The position numbers and the translations under genes were made by a program. A stretch of DNA of 64,000 bases from an uncultured Planctomycetaceae bacterium (GTDB taxonomy: Bacteria; Planctomycetota; Phycisphaerae; SM23-33), in NCBI GenBank assembly GCA_964605095.1, contig CAZSBS010000001.1, forward strand, positions 4,790 through 68,789, in the 5' to 3' direction. Shown in pieces: positions 5,023 through 61,913 of the stretch (position 1 is its first letter; each line of letters starts with the position of its first letter). The notes beneath the pieces were generated by a model. That model saw nothing but the letters and a program-made list of their open reading frames with translations. It was not told the origin of the DNA and searched no databases.

Positions 5023-5379
5023 TTGCGAATGACAATGGAGCAAGCAATGGCTTGGAGAGCAATACATAAATACGCCCGCATCAGCCCCCGTAAGGTGCGG
5101 CTGGTTGCGGACCTGATTCGCGGACGTGGCGTTCAGGACGCCCTTAACCTCCTGAAGTTCAGCCCTAACAGGGCGGCGGTCATGGTCTCGAAGGTCCTGA
5201 CCAGCGCGATCGCCAACGCCAACGAGGCCGAGGCCAACGTGGAGGACCTGATCGTCGACCGGGCGTTCGTGGACGAGGGTCCGACGATCAAACGGTTTCA
5301 GCCCAAGGACCGTGGCAGGGCGAATCCGATCATGAAACGCACCAGCCACATTACCGTCGTGGTCGAGCAGGAAGAATAA
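5023..5379 (+). CDS. rplV: 50S ribosomal protein L22 (true start may be 5038 or 5047)
   Basis: 118 aa, ...[24 protein letters not shown]... L22 signature. Confidence 0.92.
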
Positions 5380-5407
5380 GCCGCTAGGCAAGCACAACGA
5401 GGCAGGT

Positions 5408-6244
5408 ATGGGTCAGAAAGTATCACCAATCGGATTCAGGACTGGCATAACGCTCGGCTGGAAGAGCCGCTGGTTCGCTCCCAAGAGCAACTTCGGCGAG
5501 TTCCTGGTCGAGGACGCCAAGATCCGAAAATTCGTGGACGCCAAGCTCAACCGCCAGCCGCCCTACGCGGCCGTCAGCGAGATCCAGATCGAGCGGACCC
5601 GCGAAGAAGTGAAGATCTTCCTGAAGACCGCCCGCCCTGGCTTGGTCATCGGCCCCAAGGGCGCGGAAGTGGACAAGCTTCGAGGTGCTCTGGAGAACCT
5701 GACCAACCGGCGCGTGAGCATCAACATCATCGAGATCAAGAACCCCGACCTCGACGCGCAGTTGGTGGCCGAGGGAATCGCCGAACAGCTCAAGCGGCGG
5801 ACCAGCTTCCGCCGGGCGATGAAGATGCGTGCCGAGACGACGATGCAGGCCGGCGCTCGCGGCGTGAAGATCACGGTTTCAGGCCGGCTCGGCGGGGCGG
5901 AGATGAGCCGCACCGAGACGCAGTTGACAGGTTCGATTCCGCTTCACACGCTGGACGCCGACGTTGACTACGGCTTTACGCCTTGCGTGACGACTTACGG
6001 CACTATCGGCGTGAAGGTGTGGATTTATCGCGGCAAGTTCGGTGAGGAGCCGCTGGTTGTCAAGCCGGAAGACCGGCCCGGCGGCGCTCGCGGGCGTCGT
6101 GGGCCGGGCCGAGGTTTCGGCGGTCCCGGTGGCCCCGGTGGCCGCGGCGGTGCCGGTGGTCGTCGTGGCCCAGGTGGGCCGAGGAGCGATCGGCCACAGG
6201 GCCAGGCAGGTGGCGCCCAGCCGGCGACCGGCTCCGAGGCGTAA
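5408..6244 (+). CDS. rpsC: 30S ribosomal protein S3 with ~58-aa Gly/Arg-rich C-terminal tail
   Basis: 278 aa, MGQKVSPIGFR...KH-domain region; tail RPGGARGRRGPGRGFGGPGGPGGRGGAGGRRGPGGPR. Confidence 0.94.
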   Translation: MGQKVSPIGFRTGITLGWKSRWFAPKSNFGEFLVEDAKIRKFVDAKLNRQPPYAAVSEIQIERTREEVKIFLKTARPGLVIGPKGAEVDKLRGALENLTNRRVSINIIEIKNPDLDAQLVAEGIAEQLKRRTSFRRAMKMRAETTMQAGARGVKITVSGRLGGAEMSRTETQLTGSIPLHTLDADVDYGFTPCVTTYGTIGVKVWIYRGKFGEEPLVVKPEDRPGGARGRRGPGRGFGGPGGPGGRGGAGGRRGPGGPRSDRPQGQAGGAQPATGSEA

Positions 6245-18290: not shown

Positions 18291-18310
18291 GACCGCCGGC
18301 TAGCCTCTCT

Positions 18311-18578
18311 AGCCCCGTTCACGGGGCTTCGCCCCCGCGACAGCGGGGGTCTAGACCAGGCCTTTTAGGCCTGGGTAGGCGTCTACGCGCCACCCCTTCT
18401 TTTTGTTTTTCCCTTAGCCCGCTTCAGCGGGCTTACAGGCTCTCGAAAGCCTTCAGGCTAAAGCCGCGCAGAAAGCACGCCGAGGCGTGCTAAACAGAAA
18501 CAACAGGGGTGGGCTGACTCCCCAGGGCTGGAAGCCCTGGTCTATACCCCTTCGGGGCGAAGCCCCGTGAACGGGGCT
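18311..18578. repeat. 268-bp element bounded by ~45-bp imperfect terminal inverted repeats, internal perfect hairpins (MITE-like or structured RNA)
   Basis: left agccccgttcacggggcttcgcccc...ggggtctagaccagg vs right cctggtctataccccttcggggcgaagccccgtgaacggggct; internal gcacgccgaggcgtgc, ccagggctggaagccctgg, caggccttttaggcctg. Confidence 0.55.
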
Positions 18579-18636
18579 GAAAAGCATGGCGGCTAGGGCG
18601 GGAATCTGGTATAAACTTACGCATCATGCATAGGGC

Positions 18637-19172: not shown

Positions 19173-19356
19173 CAATCTCGAATCTCGAAATACGAAACAA
19201 ATCCCAAATTCCAAATTCAAATGTTCAAAACGCCGGGAGATGGCGTCATACTTGCCTGTGAGGGATCTGAGCGCCGCCTTGGAGCTTTTGTTTTGGTTTT
19301 TGTATTTTGAGATTGTTTCGGATTTCGTGCTTCGGATTTCGGATTTTTCTGTTTCG
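19173..19356. repeat. long imperfect inverted repeat of simple-sequence arms (A/C-rich then G/T-rich)
   Basis: caatctcgaatctcgaaatacgaaacaaatcccaaattccaaattcaaatgttcaaaac ... cttttgttttggtttttgtattttgagattgtttcggatttcgtgcttcggatttcggattttt. Confidence 0.6.
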
Positions 19357-19369
19357 CAAGGAGCAACAT

Positions 19370-20017
19370 ATGCGCATCTGGACAAATGCAGGCAGGATCG
19401 CGGCCCTGGCCGTCGCGTCGGCAGCCTTGGTGCTGGGCGGGTGTGATAAGTACGGTGCCGGCCGGTCCGGCAGCTTCCCGGTGGTGGATATCGTTACCTC
19501 GGCCGGGACAATCCGGGCCGAGCTCTGGCCTGACAAGGCCCCGAATACCGTCGCCAACTTCCTCCAATACGCCGATGGGGGGTTCTACGACAACACGATC
19601 TTCCATCGGTGCATCGTTGGGTTCATGATCCAGGGCGGGGGGCTTACGCCGGACTGGAAGGAAAAGCCCGCCCGGGCCGCCATCCGCAACGAGGCGGACA
19701 GCGGCCTGCGGAACGTTCGCGGCACGCTGTCGATGGCCCGCACAAGCGATCCTCACAGCGCCACCTGCCAGTTCTTCATCAACACGGCCGACAACTCCAA
19801 GCTCGACCACGAGGGTAAAACCGACGCAGGCTGGGGCTACTGCGTGTTCGGGCAGGTCACATCCGGCATGGAGGTTGTCGACGCCATCGTACAAGCCCCG
19901 ACGGTGGGTCCCGAGCAGAACGGTCGGCCCGCCAAGCCCGTGGTTATCAAGTCTATCCGGCGCGTGGGCGGCCCGAAGCCCGCCCCGGCCAAGGCCAAGG
20001 CGGGCAGTAAGGGATAG
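19370..20017 (+). CDS. cyclophilin-type peptidyl-prolyl isomerase, lipoprotein (periplasmic)
   Basis: RBS aaggag 19358; MRIWTNAGRIAALAVASAALVLGGC lipobox; ...FHRCIVGFMIQGGG... cyclophilin core. Confidence 0.88.
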   Translation: MRIWTNAGRIAALAVASAALVLGGCDKYGAGRSGSFPVVDIVTSAGTIRAELWPDKAPNTVANFLQYADGGFYDNTIFHRCIVGFMIQGGGLTPDWKEKPARAAIRNEADSGLRNVRGTLSMARTSDPHSATCQFFINTADNSKLDHEGKTDAGWGYCVFGQVTSGMEVVDAIVQAPTVGPEQNGRPAKPVVIKSIRRVGGPKPAPAKAKAGSKG

Positions 20018-44339: not shown

Positions 44340-45422
44340 ATGAAGCGATGGATTCTATATGTGGCCGGGATGGTGGCGGCAGGGTTTGTTCTTGGGGTCG
44401 TGCTTGGCAACGGGTTCTCGCAACCGTTGCCCGCGGCCGCCGCCGTGGGTGCGGCGGATCCCAATAACAAACCAGCCATGGCCGGCGGCGCCAGCCCGTC
44501 GGCCCAGCCCGCTGCCGCGCGCCCGCAGGCAACCCAGGCGCCAGCGCCGGTTCGAGACGCCCGCGCGCCTCAATCGCCGCTCCGGAAAGCGGCTTCCGCA
44601 AATGCCCCGACCGCTGCCGCCGCGGCCCCGGAATATCCCCCGGTCGAACTGGTCGCCGCCTGCGGCCGAAAGGCGGCGGAAATCCGCGGGCAGTATGGCG
44701 CCAAGCTCAACGTGGTCGCTCATCCGCCGTTCGTGATCGCCGGCGACATGAGCGTCTCACGGCTTGAATCCTACGCCAAGGCCTCCGTGGTTCGCCCGGC
44801 CAGGGCGATGTGGGCGGCCTATTTCGACAAGAAGCCCGACCAGGTGATAACCACTTTCCTTTTCGCCGGCCAGGACAACTACAAGCTGCACGCCCGCAAG
44901 GACTATCCCGACGGGGGCGCGCCGTATTACGGGTACTACAGCCCGGCGGGGCGGACGATGGTGATGAACATCAATACCGGCACGGGCACGCTGGTCCACG
45001 AGCTTACGCACGCGCTGATAGTCTACGATTTCCCGAATCTGCCGACGTGGTTCAACGAGGGGCTCGCCAGCCTGCACGAGCAGTGCAACGTCGAGGAAGA
45101 TGGCATCACGGGCCTGCCCAACTGGCGCCTGCCGGGCCTCCAGGCCGCCATCAGCGCCGGTAAGCTTCGCCCGCTGGTGGAGCTCGTAACCAGGCGGGAC
45201 TTCTACGGCCCGGCCCAGGGGATCAACTACGCCCAGGCCCGGTACTTCGTGATGTACATGCAGCACAAGGGGCTGCTGCGCGAGTTCTACCGCTACTTCC
45301 GCGGCCACGCCGATGGCGACGCCGCGGACGTCCGCGCGATCGAACACGTCTTCGGACGGAAGATCACGGAGATCGAGCCCGCCTTCATTGCGTGGGTCAA
45401 GACGCTCAAGTTCGAGCGGTAA
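44340..45422 (+). CDS. DUF1570-like putative zinc metallopeptidase (HEXXH), N-terminal TM, Ala/Pro-rich linker
   Basis: MKRWILYVAGMVAAGFVLGVVLG TM; ...TGTLVHELTHALIVYDF... HEXXH. Confidence 0.6.
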   Translation: MKRWILYVAGMVAAGFVLGVVLGNGFSQPLPAAAAVGAADPNNKPAMAGGASPSAQPAAARPQATQAPAPVRDARAPQSPLRKAASANAPTAAAAAPEYPPVELVAACGRKAAEIRGQYGAKLNVVAHPPFVIAGDMSVSRLESYAKASVVRPARAMWAAYFDKKPDQVITTFLFAGQDNYKLHARKDYPDGGAPYYGYYSPAGRTMVMNINTGTGTLVHELTHALIVYDFPNLPTWFNEGLASLHEQCNVEEDGITGLPNWRLPGLQAAISAGKLRPLVELVTRRDFYGPAQGINYAQARYFVMYMQHKGLLREFYRYFRGHADGDAADVRAIEHVFGRKITEIEPAFIAWVKTLKFER

Positions 45423-45490
45423 GGAAGAGGAAAGACAAGGCCTTACGCGGAGGACGCAGAGGAGAAGAAAGAGAAGAAGAGTAAGCAATG

Positions 45491-45585
45491 ATAAACGCAG
45501 ACCCACGGTCCCTTCGGGATAAACGCAGATGAAAACTATCCTCTCATCCGCGTTCATCCCGAAGGGACCGTGGGTCTGCGTTTAT
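45491..45585. terminator. 28-bp perfect inverted repeat (bidirectional terminator-like) between convergent genes, embedded in purine-rich/pyrimidine-rich symmetric flanks
   Basis: ataaacgcagacccacggtcccttcggg ... cccgaagggaccgtgggtctgcgtttat. Confidence 0.6.
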
Positions 45586-45619
45586 CGCTGCAGAGAACTC
45601 TTTAGTCTCTTATTTCTTG

Positions 45620-46507
45620 TTACTTGCCGGATCCTGCGGCGATTTCCTTGGCGGTGTCGTTGAAGAACTTCACGCACGCGGCCAGGTCGGCCAGGGTGAA
45701 CTGGTGCTCGTACTCGATGGAGAACACACCCTTGAAGCCCTGGGCGTGGAGTTCCGCCAGCACGGCCTTGACGTCGCCCTTGCCGGTGCCCCAGGGCACG
45801 TCATGGCCGTTTCCGAACTCGTTGAGATCCTTGAAGTGCAGGCTTACGATCCGGCCCTTGAGCATCTTGATGGCGTCAAGGGGCTTGATGTTGCGGCGCA
45901 TCCAGTGCCCGGTGTCGGAGCAGGAGCCTATGCGTTTGCTCTTGCCCTCGCAGGCGGCCAGGACCTTTTCCGGCGGCCAGGAGTTCGGGTGGTTGTGCAG
46001 GGCCGCGTTGATGCCGTACTCGTTGCAGAGCTTGTCGAGGAACGGCGGGGTGGATTCGGTAACGATGGTTTCCAGGCCCATTACCTTGGCCCAGTCGAAC
46101 AGCTTGCGGGCGTCGGCCTCGTTGCCCGGAATGCCCGTGACGCCGAAGTTCACCAGCGTGACGCCCTTTTCCTTGAGCTTGGCCTTGACGGCGGCGATGG
46201 TCTCCTTCTTCATTTCCGGGCCCATCTTTTCGTCGATGTCCTTGCTGACCTTTTGGCCCGGGTAGGCCTCGATGTACTTCACACCGATGGCGGCTGTCTT
46301 GTCGATGGCCTCGAAGAACGTCCCGCCGCGGAACGTGTATGCCTGCGTCGCCAGGCGCCAGCCGAGCTTCTCGGCGTCCGGCGAGCCCATGGCCTGGAAC
46401 GCCGGCCCTGGCACATCCTTCGCCGCATTCGCGACGGCGGTGCCGATAAACCACAATGCCGCGGCCAAAACAGCGCCAACTGCGATTCTGCTCTTGCTCA
46501 TCTTCAT
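45620..46507 (-). CDS. secreted sugar-phosphate isomerase/epimerase (xylose-isomerase-like TIM barrel)
   Basis: signal peptide MKMSKSRIAVGAVLAAALWFIGTAVANA; TIM-barrel family pattern ...FKGVFSIEYEH... Confidence 0.7.
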   Translation of the reverse strand: MKMSKSRIAVGAVLAAALWFIGTAVANAAKDVPGPAFQAMGSPDAEKLGWRLATQAYTFRGGTFFEAIDKTAAIGVKYIEAYPGQKVSKDIDEKMGPEMKKETIAAVKAKLKEKGVTLVNFGVTGIPGNEADARKLFDWAKVMGLETIVTESTPPFLDKLCNEYGINAALHNHPNSWPPEKVLAACEGKSKRIGSCSDTGHWMRRNIKPLDAIKMLKGRIVSLHFKDLNEFGNGHDVPWGTGKGDVKAVLAELHAQGFKGVFSIEYEHQFTLADLAACVKFFNDTAKEIAAGSGK

Positions 46508-51454: not shown

Positions 51455-51617
51455 AATGTTCAATACTCAATGCTCAATGTTCAATGAAGAGCTCCTTGTA
51501 GCAGTAGGTTGGAGAGTCCGGATGAGCGGTAAGAACGCGTGAAACGGCTGATGCCAGTTGAACATTTGAGATTGAACATTGAATTGAGCATTGAACATTG
51601 AGCATTGGACATTCGAC
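51455..51617. repeat. inverted repeat built from caatgttcaatgctcaat units flanking ~70-bp spacer
   Basis: aatgttcaatactcaatgctcaatgttcaatg ... gttgaacatttgagattgaacattgaattgagcattgaacattgagcattggacattcgac. Confidence 0.65.
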
Positions 51618-51644
51618 AGGCACCATATAAGGAAGGCACGAATA

Positions 51645-58255: not shown

Positions 58256-59026
58256 TTACGTTTCAGCCTCCAACCCCCCGAAGCGGCGTTTTCTTCCCGC
58301 GTAGTCGCGCAGTGCCTTGTGGAGCTCTTCTTCGGTGAAGTCAGGCCAGTAGAGGTCGGTGACGTAGAACTCGGCGTATGACAGTTGCCAGAGCAGGAAG
58401 TTGCTGATTCTCAGTTCGCCGGAGGTTCGGATGAGCAGGTCCGGGTCGGGCACGCCGTGGGTGTCCAGCGACCGGGAGATGAGGTCCTCGTCGACGTCGT
58501 CGGGGGCGAGCTTGCCCTGTGCGACGGATCGTGCGATGTTGCGGATGGCGTCGGTCATCTCGACGCGGGCGGCGTAGTTCAGGGCCAGGCACAGGTACAT
58601 GCCCGTGCAGGCGGCGGTGGCTTCGGTGGAGGAGTCGATCTCGCGGAGCACGCCGTCGGGCAGGCCCGTGCGCCGGCCTATGTGGCGGAAGCGGATGTTA
58701 TGCTCCGACATCGTCTGGCGCTCGCGGGCGAGGTAGCGGGCGTAGAGGCTCATCAGGGCCGCGACTTCCTCAGCCGGGCGGTGCCAGTTCTCGATGGAGA
58801 AACTGTAGAGCGTAAGCGCGTCGAGCCCGATGTGGGCGGCCTCGGTCACGATTCTTCGGACGACCTCGGCCCCGGCAGCGTGCCCGGCTGTGCGAGGCAG
58901 GCCGCGCTGACGGGCCCATCGCCCGTTGCCGTCGAGGATGATGGCGACCGACCGCGGGATGTGCTCGACGCTCAACCCGAGCCTCGCGTGTGCGGCGGCG
59001 GTGGTTTGGGGCGTAACGCGGCTCAT
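58256..59026 (-). CDS. uppS: undecaprenyl-diphosphate synthase (cis-prenyltransferase)
   Basis: 256 aa; ...HIAIILDGNGRWA... and ...LTLYSFSIENWHRP..., ...RTSGELRISNFLLWQ... UppS signatures; track ORF N-terminus beyond 59026 spurious. Confidence 0.88.
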   Translation of the reverse strand: MSRVTPQTTAAAHARLGLSVEHIPRSVAIILDGNGRWARQRGLPRTAGHAAGAEVVRRIVTEAAHIGLDALTLYSFSIENWHRPAEEVAALMSLYARYLARERQTMSEHNIRFRHIGRRTGLPDGVLREIDSSTEATAACTGMYLCLALNYAARVEMTDAIRNIARSVAQGKLAPDDVDEDLISRSLDTHGVPDPDLLIRTSGELRISNFLLWQLSYAEFYVTDLYWPDFTEEELHKALRDYAGRKRRFGGLEAET

Positions 59027-60336
59027 TCCTTGAAGCCCCGGACCTGCGTGTTGTGGACGATTGTGGCCTCGCGGTCCGCCCCGACGCCGATGAATCCCAC
59101 GGGCCTGCCGATGAGGCCCTCGACGGCCTGGACGTACTCGCGGGCCTCGATGGGCAGATCCTCGAATCGTCGGGCGTCGGATATCTCCTGCTTCCAGCCC
59201 GGCAGGGTTTCGTAGACGCACTCGACGCCCTGAAGGGCCGTGGCGTCGAAGTCCAGCACGGCCTCTCCGGCGACGCGGTAGCCGGTGCATATTTTCAGTT
59301 CGTCGAATCCGCTGAGCACATCCAGCAGCGCCAGGGCCAGTTCGTTGGCGCCGGAGAGGTCCGCGGCGTACTTGACGGCGAATGCGTCGAACCATCCGCA
59401 GCGTCTGGGCCGGCCCGTGGTGGTGCCGTATTCGTGCCCCCGCTCGCGGATGCGGCAGCCGGAGGCGTTGTCCTGCTCGGTGGGCATAGGCCCGGCGCCG
59501 ACCCGCGTGGTGTAGGCCTTGACGAGCCCCACGACTCGCCCGACCGCCGACGGCGGCACGCCGGCGCCGGCGGGCACGCCGCAGGCCGTCACGGACGAGC
59601 TTGTTACGAACGGGTACGTGCCGTGATCGACATCCAGCAGGCTGCCCTGTCCGCCCTCGAAGAGGATCGGCTCGCGGACGGCGATGGCTCGGCGGAGCCT
59701 GGCGCCGGTGTTGGCGACCATGCCGGCAAGCTTTCGCCCGTAGTCGCAAAACTCCTGGACGATGGCTTCGACGTCCATCGGCTCGCTGGAGTAAAGGGCG
59801 GCGAAGGTGCGGTTCTTGATGTCGGCGATGCGGCGGATCTTCTCGCCCAGTTCGGCCTCATTCAGCAGATCGGCCACGCGGATGGCGGTCGATCGGCGGG
59901 CCTTGTCGGCGTAGCACGGGCCTATGCCGCGGGCGGTGGTGCCGATCTTGCCCTCGCCGAGGGAGCCTTCCGAGCCCGTGTCCTCGATTTTGTGCCACGG
60001 CATGACGACCTGGGCGGCGGCGCTTATCAGGAGGTTGCCGGGTCCGACGCTGACGCCGCGTTGCCGGAGGTGCTCGATCTCCTGCCAGGCGATGGTCGGG
60101 TCGAAGACCACGCCGTTGCCGATGACGTTCAGGACCTCCGGGCGGAGGATGCCGCAGGGGATCAGGTGCAGGGCGTACTTCTCGCCGCCGACGTGGACGG
60201 TGTGACCCGCGTTGGCGCCGCCGCAGAAGCGGACGACGTACTTGCAGACGCCCGAAAGGGCGTCAACCACCTTGCCTTTGCCCTCATCGCCCCACTGAAG
60301 GCCCACAACCGTGACGTTGACGTTCTGTGTGTCCAT
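59023..60336 (-). CDS. purA: adenylosuccinate synthetase
   Basis: MDTQNVNVTVVGLQWGDEGKGKVVD... P-loop and GNGVV...; 4-bp overlap with uppS. Confidence 0.9.
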   Translation of the reverse strand: MDTQNVNVTVVGLQWGDEGKGKVVDALSGVCKYVVRFCGGANAGHTVHVGGEKYALHLIPCGILRPEVLNVIGNGVVFDPTIAWQEIEHLRQRGVSVGPGNLLISAAAQVVMPWHKIEDTGSEGSLGEGKIGTTARGIGPCYADKARRSTAIRVADLLNEAELGEKIRRIADIKNRTFAALYSSEPMDVEAIVQEFCDYGRKLAGMVANTGARLRRAIAVREPILFEGGQGSLLDVDHGTYPFVTSSSVTACGVPAGAGVPPSAVGRVVGLVKAYTTRVGAGPMPTEQDNASGCRIRERGHEYGTTTGRPRRCGWFDAFAVKYAADLSGANELALALLDVLSGFDELKICTGYRVAGEAVLDFDATALQGVECVYETLPGWKQEISDARRFEDLPIEAREYVQAVEGLIGRPVGFIGVGADREATIVHNTQVRGFKE

Positions 60337-60493
60337 TACGCTACCATGAAAGGGGAGAAACTCCGCGGTCAACACAACCTGCTAAGGATAGCCCAAGCGG
60401 CGGGGCTGTCAAGTGGTTGGATTAAAACAGCCGGGAGCGCAGGGGCTCTCGCCAGGCCGCAAGCGACCGCCGCCGGTAAAGGATCCATTGGCA

Positions 60494-60794
60494 GACAAGG
60501 ACCAAATGACAAGCACCAAAATCCAAACAAGGACCAAGAAGATAAACAGCAAATCTCAAACAGGACAAAGAACCCCGGCGCCTTAAACCCCTAGGCCTTG
60601 CCGGGAGAGGTTTTTGACAGCCCGAAGGCCCGGGTCAGGGCGTCGCGGTTTGCCGAAGCCCTCTGGGCTGAGACACCATTGATGGGCGTCCTGTCTTTTC
60701 TTTGTTTCTTGTTTGGAATCTGCCTGCCGGCAGGTTTGCTGTTTTGCTGTTTGGTCCTTGTTTGTTCCTTGGTGCTTGCAACTTGGTCCTTGCC
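60494..60794. repeat. ~85-bp imperfect inverted repeat arms (A/C-rich vs G/T-rich) flanking ~110-bp GC-rich core
   Basis: gacaaggaccaaatgacaagcaccaaaatccaaacaaggaccaagaagataaacagcaaatc... vs rc of ...tttgctgttttgctgtttggtccttgtttgttccttggtgcttgcaacttggtccttgcc (~80% identical). Confidence 0.65.
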
Positions 60795-60974
60795 TAGAAG
60801 CGGCATCCCGCAGAGGTTTGTTGCACGCAACTTTGGATTTTGGCCACCCGTGCCGGCCCCGGCCGGGCGGCAAAAAAACTTGCTCGCGAAAAGGTGAAAT
60901 TGACTTTGTTCGCCCAGAGCGACTTGTATACAATACAGGCGTCGAATAATCATCTCTGCTTCAAGGAGTCGATC

Positions 60975-61241
60975 TTGGAAGCACCGCGCAGCAAGGCGAT
61001 GTTGTTAGGTTTGGGCCTGGACAATTATGACGGGCATACCCGCGTCACCCGCGGCGAGAACTTCCACCTGCTTGGCGGGTCGCAGGAGACCCACGAGGTC
61101 ATGCAGGACAAGTGCATCAGGTTTAACGAGAAGCTCCAGGCACGCGGCAAACACATGGGTGAGTTGGTGCGCCAGGAGTTTCTGGACATCGCGGCCGAGT
61201 GCGAGATGGCCGTCGCCACGCCGCGTCCCAGGCAGCCTTGA
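60975..61241 (+). CDS. hypothetical small protein (start uncertain: TTG 60975 after aaggag, or ATG 60999)
   Basis: ...MLLGLGLDNYDGHTRVTRGENFHLLGGSQETHEVMQDKCIRFNEKLQARGKHMGELVRQEFLDIAAECEMAVA; no family recognised. Confidence 0.35.
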   Translation: MEAPRSKAMLLGLGLDNYDGHTRVTRGENFHLLGGSQETHEVMQDKCIRFNEKLQARGKHMGELVRQEFLDIAAECEMAVATPRPRQP

Positions 61242-61398
61242 AACGGCCCCGGAAAAACATTTTTTTTGACTTGTCAGAAAACGCCAGAAGCTGCAAAATA
61301 TTGGTTGGCATATCGCATCGTCAGTAGTGGACAGGAGGTCCGGCAACACACCCAAGCGTTCCTGGGAGGGAACCTGGTTGTGCATATGGAGGCGGAGT

Positions 61399-61581
61399 AT
61401 GCGTGCATTTCGTCCGAGCCGGTTTGCGCCCGCGGAAGAATACGACGAGGATAACCAGCGGATCAAGGCCGCCAATCTCGAGCGCTACGTCAAGCGCGCC
61501 GAGAAGGGCACACCCCTCTTTGAAAGGGTGCGTTCAATGGCCGACATCAGGCGGGCTATCGATTTTTTCATGCGGGACTGA
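61399..61581 (+). CDS. hypothetical 60-aa protein
   Basis: RBS ggagg 61388; MRAFRPSRFAPAEEYDEDNQRIKAANLERYVKRAEKGTPLFERVRSMADIRRAIDFFMRD. Confidence 0.35.
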   Translation: MRAFRPSRFAPAEEYDEDNQRIKAANLERYVKRAEKGTPLFERVRSMADIRRAIDFFMRD

Positions 61582-61913
61582 GCTAGCAGGGCAGTGAACA
61601 AACTGTCTGTGCGCGTCCGGGCGTTTGCGGGTCCCCGGCCAGCCGCTGGACCGGTAGCGTTTTGGCCCGCCAAAGAGGCTGCGAACGCTCAGGTCGCAGT
61701 CTGGCGCCAAGGCGCAAACTCTTATTGCGGACTCGCTTCGGCACTGTCCTTCCCCCGTTTCCCGCTCGTTTTTTCGTTCCTGCCGATTCTTGTTATTGAC
61801 AAGTGGGTCCGCCTCCCGTAATAAGTTTCGAGCATAACGTATGCGCAGTGGCGGTCCTTGTCTCTCAGGCCACAGGGGTCGGATGGGCCGGATCGCCAAG
61901 GCGGCAGGAAAGG

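Follow-up and report, generated by a model that had tools for sequence, protein, structure and literature searches.

The longest inverted repeat in the 64-kb stretch of DNA from an uncultured Planctomycetaceae bacterium that was analysed here (the window) lies upstream of purA, the gene for adenylosuccinate synthetase. It forms a hairpin-capable element of about 330 nt that is probably a copy of a non-autonomous, dispersed repeat of uncultured high-GC Planctomycetota, resembling miniature inverted-repeat transposable elements (MITEs) or foldback elements. Since the family is dispersed and the closest relatives have no element at this site, it is probably selfish or mobile DNA and not a regulator of purA. 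The best-supported view of the purA-site copy is that of a recent or lineage-specific resident without a dedicated regulatory role. A first-pass annotation of the same sequence had suggested either a regulatory cruciform or a remnant mobile element. The second suggestion is supported as far as mobility and dispersal are concerned, because the element is absent in relatives while its arms and the whole element recur elsewhere; it is not a remnant, however, but an intact family member.

The inverted repeat and its anatomy

The self-complementarity upstream of purA withstood formal alignment. In a gapped local alignment, the left arm and the reverse complement of the right arm reached a score of 65, compared with 19.2 +/- 3.3 (maximum 33) for 500 shuffled sequences. 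Folding of the segment 60480-60810 resulted in -156.7 kcal/mol for RNA of the plus strand (z = -9.5), -162.3 kcal/mol for RNA of the minus strand (z = -10.1) and -85.7 kcal/mol for DNA (z = -8.5), and the real sequence surpassed every shuffle both as RNA and as DNA. With alignment score and folds this far outside the shuffled controls, the inverted repeat is real. Predicted pairing extends from about 60481 to about 60808, and BLAST matches to family elements of other contigs cover 60467-60796. The RNA folds leave the strand of action undecided, with nearly equal energies and four wobble pairs on the plus strand versus seven on the minus strand. The sequence of the element is identical in eight independent assemblies and is therefore no assembly artefact.

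The first-pass annotation had described arms of ~85 bp, ~80% complementary to each other, around a GC-rich core of 110 bp. An inverted-repeat search returned ungapped arms of 64 nt each (60493-60556 and 60732-60795) with a gap of 175 nt and the expected 80% complementarity. The arm length was overestimated, since the arm strings given at the time map to 60494-60570 (77 nt) and, reverse-complemented, to 60733-60793 (61 nt). A GC-rich core is indeed present, but it comprises 120 nt, and the arms are 163-175 nt apart instead of 110. Two motifs that had been assigned to the core, ccggcaggcagattcc and ggaatctgcctgccgg, are the two strands of one site, 60715-60730. What is truly palindromic here is the 12-mer CCTGCCGGCAGG, which is located in the inner right arm and not in the core.

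The left arm is built from units of the type CAAG[G/C]ACCAA, namely CAAGGACCAA at 60496, CAAGCACCAA at 60510 and again CAAGGACCAA at 60528, and the reverse complements of these units are found in the right arm. Reading arm against arm, 34 of 42 positions are identical along the pattern CAAGGACCAA-N4-CAAGCACCAA-N4-CAAACAAGGACCAA, and the mismatches between the two arms concentrate in both 4-nt spacers. Tandem Repeats Finder (TRF) detects periods of 14 and 32 nt in the element.

The mini-palindrome in the right arm behaves as a module of its own. It is present in L106 and missing from contigs of the same locus (L173, L200 and L216), and it also occurs in L117, L182 and L185. In the form CCTGCC(TGCC)GGCAGG(CAGA), it is present in some and absent from others of otherwise nearly identical copies, as would be expected of an independently inserting nano-element.

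A dispersed family of foldback elements

Additional copies, for which the first-pass annotation had proposed a search, do exist. A metagenome collection was scanned with CAAGGACCAANNNNCAAGCACCAA, a 24-nt pattern with 20 specified bases that corresponds to the arm motif CAAGGACCAA-N4-CAAGCACCAA. The pattern was found on at least 120 contigs, and the window itself contains a second family member, which is located between tandem genes, one ending at about 19113 and the next starting at 19371.

The matches fall into three groups. Group A consists of high-GC contigs (GC fraction 0.60-0.67), mostly from freshwater sediment, on which the architecture is that of the window element: a C/A-rich run has its G/T-rich reverse complement 10-370 nt further downstream. 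The counts of foldbacks, loci, polarity and orientation given here refer to the matches listed in the scan. Among these, 50 group A foldbacks were assigned to 38 distinct loci by clustering of their flanks, several contigs carrying two of them. Nearly all are intergenic (49/50). The flanking genes are in tandem in 21 cases, convergent in 10 and divergent in 8, which amounts to no bias. The C/A-rich arm comes first in 34 cases and second in 2, while the polarity in group B is the opposite (0 versus 6).

Group B comprises high-GC soil contigs (L100, L105, L116, L119, L152 and others) with arrays of the heptamer GGACCAA, often arranged as inverted pairs with the G/T-rich part first; this is an unrelated repeat type. 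The same applies to group C, low-GC marine phage-like and viral contigs (L097, L103, L110 and L223-L229) on which CAAGC arrays are located directly upstream of promoters of the form TTGACA...TATAAT. A viral origin of the family was rejected, because all seven matches on viral contigs belong to these low-GC marine phage contigs with their unrelated CAAGC repeats.

Family members are 130-520 nt in size. An arm has between 1 and 26 units, and the two arms of a pair often differ in unit number. In L187, TRF gives a tandem period of 96 nt for the arm, equal to three 32-nt units. L121 and L168 represent one and the same locus in two samples, and a tandem duplication of 46 nt in one arm distinguishes them.

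Besides single arms, whole elements recur. The window element and its counterpart in L160 are 82% identical over 301 nt, including both arms and the core. The L160 copy lies between two convergent genes and its flanks do not match the window. Its segment 1451-1569 (84% identity over 121 nt) is the only homolog of the window core among the fetched loci, the cores of other members being unrelated. L121/L168 share both arms of the window element, the left one with 91% identity over 80 nt, whereas their core is unrelated; arms elsewhere are 80-87% identical to the left arm.

A sub-family of about 190 nt with a core of its own, ...AAGAGCCCAYCTTCGGGTCCC..., is found at eight to nine loci with 78-88% identity and unrelated flanking proteins. 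Variable columns make up 13 of 84 positions in the paired part of its arms, 21 of 31 in the unpaired part (Fisher p = 2e-7) and 25 of 39 in the core; because the structure prediction drew on this alignment as well, the comparison of paired with unpaired positions is partly circular. The picture that emerges from the predicted structure is a clear one, with conserved complementary blocks and freely varying spacers of 2-3 nt between them. One strand of the sub-family has five conserved G.U positions. Elements at the same site differ in length and core once their flanks have diverged by 12-15%.

The purA locus in related lineages

For a comparison of the locus, PurA homologs of 83-93% identity were traced to their own contigs, and a putative promoter block of the divergent gene at 60897-60934 served as an anchor for measuring spacer lengths. 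In the window, which carries the full element, the two promoter blocks are 476 nt apart. The distance is 102-110 nt in L089, L096, L217-219 and L095 (PurA 89-93%) and, by reading of the sequence, about 60-70 nt in L221 (PurA 86%), none of which contains the element. Altogether, six related lineages with PurA identities of 86-93% keep both promoter blocks and have no element. It is also missing from the best species representative in GTDB, a metagenome-assembled genome labelled 'Planctomycetaceae' with a PurA identity of 73%; the next ones belong to the Tepidisphaeraceae.

Alignments with L089, L095, L096 and L217-219 delimit a segment of about 369 nt that is missing from the orthologous spacers (Table 1). 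Its boundaries are approximate because the spacer has diverged.

An intermediate situation is seen in L092-094 (PurA 90%), with 187 nt between the promoter blocks and a GC-enriched homolog of the right arm only, about 75 nt long. This solo arm has the same right-hand junction, ...GAAGCNGCATCCCGC..., as the window element and, judged from its sequence, looks like a decayed remnant.

In L220 (PurA 90%), the purA-upstream spacer extends beyond the end of the contig. At the position of the foldback, this spacer harbours an unrelated GC-rich and hairpin-rich insertion (L220 100-300), inside which the contig ends. An insertion at the same position marks the purA-upstream spacer as an insertion hot spot. 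The conserved promoter blocks together with the dispensable element likewise indicate a hot spot of insertion and turnover.

Proposed mode of spread

Each copy consists of a C/A-rich 5' arm of reiterated 14-18-nt units (core CAAG[G/C]ACCAA), a variable core and an imperfectly complementary G/T-rich 3' arm. We propose that such copies spread as non-autonomous mobile DNA by means of a recombinase or transposase that is provided in trans and recognizes either the reiterated arm units or the folded arms. The arrays in the arms would lengthen and shorten through replication slippage, and copies may be lost by hairpin-promoted deletion, as in L092. The arms would be the part required in cis and the cores would be swappable. 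If the arms are required in cis, it is to be expected that paired arms vary far less than spacers and cores. For purA expression, the copy upstream of the gene is presumably neutral or nearly so. At most, it would displace upstream DNA from the -35 box and add a bidirectional barrier of hairpin and T tract.

Several observations weigh against a mobile repeat of this kind. At purA, where the boundaries have diverged, an imperfect direct repeat of 8 nt, CGCAGGGG/CGCAGAGG, is the only candidate for a target-site duplication, and no such duplication is visible at the L160 copy or in 50 pairs of flanks. The distribution on the PurA tree is unparsimonious, since L092 (90%) possesses an arm and the closer L089 (93%) does not; hence, either precise loss or repeated insertion at the hot spot is needed. 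In close species, orthologous copies and their flanks evolve at about the same rate (94-98% versus 90-98% identity). Terminal nucleotides are not shared between the sub-families, which have a mosaic appearance. The conserved pairing of blocks, apart from the partial circularity of the test mentioned above, would also be compatible with a host function as a structured RNA or protein-binding array. Copies were counted on contigs and not per genome, with two inside this 64-kb window.

Finally, no autonomous partner or transposase with the same arms was found beside the copies or between paired ones. A composite transposon was rejected, because the open reading frames (ORFs) between paired elements look like housekeeping genes from their translations, which were read without a domain search. 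IS1595 was likewise rejected as a partner, since a strain-specific copy about 10 kb away (L231) has unrelated ends.

A more far-reaching interpretation, which can be put forward only tentatively, is that the family represents an undescribed class of bacterial foldback elements. Its arms would be strand-asymmetric arrays (C/A versus G/T) of 14-18-nt units with a fixed, telomere-like polarity, in which, on either side of the core, the G/T-rich strand would point away from it in the 5' to 3' direction. A transposase, recombinase or host factor would recognize the units as reiterated sites, or else the units would act as single-stranded DNA or RNA, and the conserved paired blocks would reflect selection on structure. 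If this is true, a new mobilization or regulatory mechanism would be involved and not an ordinary MITE.

Alternative explanations

An unlikely alternative is that the family is a structured nucleic acid under selection for a function in the host. This would be a long-hairpin non-coding or protein-binding RNA, or a DNA array to which a nucleoid or regulatory protein binds. Across independent loci, the paired arm blocks are far more conserved than spacers and cores, orthologous copies persist where flanks have diverged by 10-15%, and the five one-strand G.U positions hint at a strand-specific single-stranded form. The polarity of the arms places T/U-rich tracts after GC hairpins on both strands. 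In addition, the arm units ACAAGGA resemble ACARGGA, the core sequence of CsrA ligands obtained by systematic evolution of ligands by exponential enrichment (SELEX).

On the other hand, not one of the 42 predicted pairs of the sub-family shows a compensatory double change. The orientation to neighbouring genes is random and no type of intergenic region is favoured, no conserved promoter was recognized, cores are swapped between copies, and six related lineages can do without the copy at purA. A role as a sponge for CsrA/Rsm proteins is at odds with the position of the GGA units, which lie within the predicted long stem and not in loops, and no promoter or terminator that would bound a small RNA was found. 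Rfam searches yielded nothing at E <= 1 in 59800-61600. At the gathering threshold, only two tRNAs were detected in the whole window, and the elements of seven family loci gave no match.

Less likely still is a bidirectional intrinsic terminator or transcriptional insulator, either original or exapted. A polymerase on either strand would meet the C/A-rich arm, the GC-rich hairpins of the core and then the U-rich G/U arm. The element thereby resembles bidirectional intrinsic terminators, in which an A-rich tract, a GC hairpin and a T-rich tract can be read from both strands, and the fixed polarity puts the T-rich arm at the 3' side on both strands. Many family copies also begin 1-50 nt after a stop codon, and four terminator-like sites consisting of a hairpin and a T run are predicted in the right arm, as opposed to 1.9 +/- 1.6 in shuffled sequences.

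This surplus is weak, however, and the element is ten times longer than such terminators. The foldback sits between both promoter blocks and therefore upstream of both divergent promoters and within neither predicted transcript, so that there is nothing at the purA site to terminate. Close relatives manage without the element, and convergent gene pairs flank 10 copies against 8 for divergent pairs, which is no enrichment.

A local origin appears doubtful, and we place it behind the two explanations above. In this scenario, slippage in an AT-rich spacer was followed by inverted duplication through template switching, and the likeness between loci results from convergence of low-complexity sequence or from gene conversion of the arms. 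In its favour, the arms consist of low-complexity tandem arrays whose length varies from strain to strain, target-site duplications and defined termini are missing, and the genome has several unrelated low-complexity foldbacks. The right-hand junction that the solo arm of L092 has in common with the window suggests long residence at the site. It is contradicted by the non-repetitive 120-nt GC-rich core, which two loci with unrelated flanks have in common with 84% identity, by the sub-family of about 190 nt, where specific imperfect arms recur together with the core at 8-9 loci, and by the recurrence of the exact pattern of 20 specified bases on so many contigs.

A regulatory cruciform or operator for purA or the divergent gene pair is highly improbable: the very strong self-complementarity, the location between divergent promoters with the -35 box of purA 30-80 nt away on the downstream side and a different low-complexity foldback upstream of purE (51457-51618) would fit it, but the promoter blocks lie outside the element and are kept in the six lineages without it, dozens of unrelated loci carry the same arms, in every type of intergenic region and with no preference for promoter regions, the repeat unit of the purE foldback is unrelated and of a type that recurs elsewhere too, and a separation of the arms by more than 160 nt, as is the case here, disfavours extrusion.

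Relation to known elements

Bacterial MITEs such as Correia/NEMIS, ERIC, RUP and Nezha are comparable to a dispersed mobile repeat as favoured here in several respects. They are small (130-520 nt in the purA family), non-coding, multicopy and intergenic, have inverted-repeat ends and a variable interior, fold into long hairpins and are present or absent among close relatives. At ~330 nt, the purA-site element is well below the upper size limit of about 600 bp, and reading frames are not conserved between copies. Dispersal over at least 120 contigs next to unrelated flanking proteins and terminal inverted repeats (arms of 64-77 nt, ~80% complementary) also agree with a MITE. These repeats are atypical, though: the arms are long arrays of 14-18-nt sub-repeats with variable copy number in place of a fixed short terminal repeat. 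Moreover, neither a target-site duplication nor common terminal nucleotides nor a cognate insertion sequence was found here.

The closest architectural match is provided by the eukaryotic Foldback transposons (FB/Galileo type). As in the purA family, their long arms are composed of short tandem sub-repeats and vary in length, often unequally, the central loop is variable and many copies are non-coding. Unlike the purA family, they are eukaryotic and kilobase-sized, with defined target duplications and P/MULE-type transposases. Since a coding partner is missing and the hosts are bacteria, the likeness is an analogy in form and no homology is claimed.

Repetitive extragenic palindromes (REPs) are GC-rich imperfect palindromes of 20-40 nt, tagged with GTAG or CGTC at one end, and together with the bacterial interspersed mosaic elements (BIMEs) and REP doublets forming hairpins (REPINs) they are mobilized by REP-associated tyrosine transposases (RAYTs) (PMC3733652). 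The purA family resembles them as a set of dispersed extragenic hairpin repeats with a mosaic and modular structure. REP, BIME and REPIN elements may move in single-stranded form, to which the one-strand conserved G.U (G.T) positions of the sub-family would correspond. The arms of the purA family differ from REPs in being 60-400 nt long, AT-rich (40-47% GC in the window copy), strand-asymmetric and devoid of a GTAG/CGTC tag. A REP/REPIN palindrome is not present, and no RAYT was seen in the available sequence, i.e. the 64 kb and the contigs.

Small dispersed repeats are also carried by cyanobacteria. Repetitive hairpin-forming elements are known from organelle genomes as well (PMC2800124). In both cases, and probably in the purA family, small selfish hairpins reside in intergenic DNA without a recognizable transposase, and the nested palindrome of 12-20 nt, CCTGCC(TGCC)GGCAGG, behaves like these repeats. 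They differ in hosts, sizes and sequences and do not have strand-asymmetric arms of tandem repeats.

No matching description was found in the literature on bacterial foldback or tandem-repeat-arm elements and on MITEs of Planctomycetes; accordingly, the foldback family appears to be undescribed so far.

For the locus itself, the outcome is deflationary, because the most striking inverted repeat of the window is no purine regulator. In a broader context, it belongs to a repeat family that is widespread in uncultured Planctomycetota and apparently undescribed, and the architecture of this family is better known from eukaryotic foldback transposons, with arms of sub-repeats, a fixed C/A-to-G/T polarity, hypervariable arm length and swappable cores. 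Such elements break metagenome assemblies, create insertion hot spots beside promoters and could mark strain-level variation. Should the arms prove to be repeated binding sites for a protein or a structure of single strands, this would suggest a new mobilization system.

Flanking genes and coding potential

The divergent context described in the first-pass annotation was borne out, with purA on the minus strand and a conserved ORF of 88 aa on the plus strand from 60975 (Table 1). The putative promoter block AAATTGACTT...TGTATACAAT of the latter, like that of purA, lies outside the foldback. A second small conserved ORF (61399-61581, 60 aa) has no Pfam match either. Both small ORFs are syntenic with purA in most relatives examined, down to a PurA identity of 73%; L222 does not have the 88-aa ORF.

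Table 1. Coordinates of the foldback element, its parts and neighbouring features in the window.
Feature	Position	Strand	Remarks
Second family member	19174..19348	.	CGAAAT/CCAAAT-type arms, ~50-nt core; homolog L118 6148-6315, 75.6% identical
purA (adenylosuccinate synthetase)	59023..60336	-	Pfam PF00709 Adenylsucc_synt, E = 3e-163
purA promoter-like site	60385..60412	-	TTGACA-16 nt-TATCCT; outside the element; kept in relatives without the element
Segment missing from orthologous spacers	60442..60810	.	~369 nt; alignments with L089, L095, L096, L217-219
Whole foldback element (arms and core)	60481..60808	.	~330 nt, hairpin-capable; RNA and DNA folds, z = -8.5 to -10
Left arm, C/A-rich	60494..60570	+	40% GC; CAAG[G/C]ACCAA units at 60496, 60510 and 60528, then inner part AAGAAGATAAACAGCAAATCTCAAACAGGAC
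GC-rich core with small hairpins of its own	60571..60690	.	120 nt; 65% GC versus 40-47% in the arms
Right arm, G/T-rich	60691..60795	+	47% GC; reverse-complement units TTGGT[C/G]CTTG at 60751-60792
Mini-palindrome CCTGCCGGCAGG	60723..60734	.	Lies in a 16-nt insertion that the L160 copy does not have
Putative promoter block of the 88-aa ORF	60897..60934	+	Suggested by conservation in L089, L092, L095 and L096; missed by consensus scan
Conserved 88-aa ORF (other flanking gene)	60975..61241	+	Syntenic in relatives; no Pfam match

Gene callers place an ORF of 71 aa at 60591-60806 on the minus strand, wholly inside the foldback. Among 5.8 billion proteins it has no homolog but itself, and the repeat has almost certainly misled the gene callers, an error to which annotation pipelines are prone here. 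A coding element was rejected for further reasons. The reading frames differ between copies (L118/L214 versus L173), with a stop codon in L166, the tandem 32-nt arrays necessarily meet a TAA, and the variable columns show no periodicity of three. In a hypothetical translation, the C/A-rich arm would yield a peptide rich in K, Q, T and N, and the G/T-rich arm a hydrophobic one.

Other repeats in the window and on related contigs

The low-complexity foldback just upstream of purE (51457-51618) has arms of TTCAATG/CTCAATG heptamers. A foldback of the same heptamer type is present at L230 660-750, about 10 kb past the end of the window, and in the strain variant L231 a gene for an IS1595-family transposase is inserted in the left arm of this foldback.

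A GC-rich element of about 277 nt at 18305-18581 contains approximately nine short hairpins and perfect inverted arms of 25 nt (18311-18335 and 18554-18578). Homologs with 74-77% identity over about 290 nt were found in L102, L140 (three matches), L149, L185, L187 and L211. It has no Rfam match and may represent a second dispersed repeat or a candidate family of structured RNAs.

At 45415-45640, a long hairpin with arms of 48 nt (92% complementary), a loop of 11 nt and outer purine-rich and pyrimidine-rich extensions lies between two apparently convergent genes and looks like an oversized bidirectional terminator.

On L187, a presumed planctomycete contig, two Acido-Lenti-1 RNA motifs (RF01687) are located at 5204-5249 on the minus strand and at 5365-5410 on the plus strand, with 42.7 and 52.6 bits, respectively (gathering threshold 37). 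The oppositely oriented pair adjoins an arm of a foldback.

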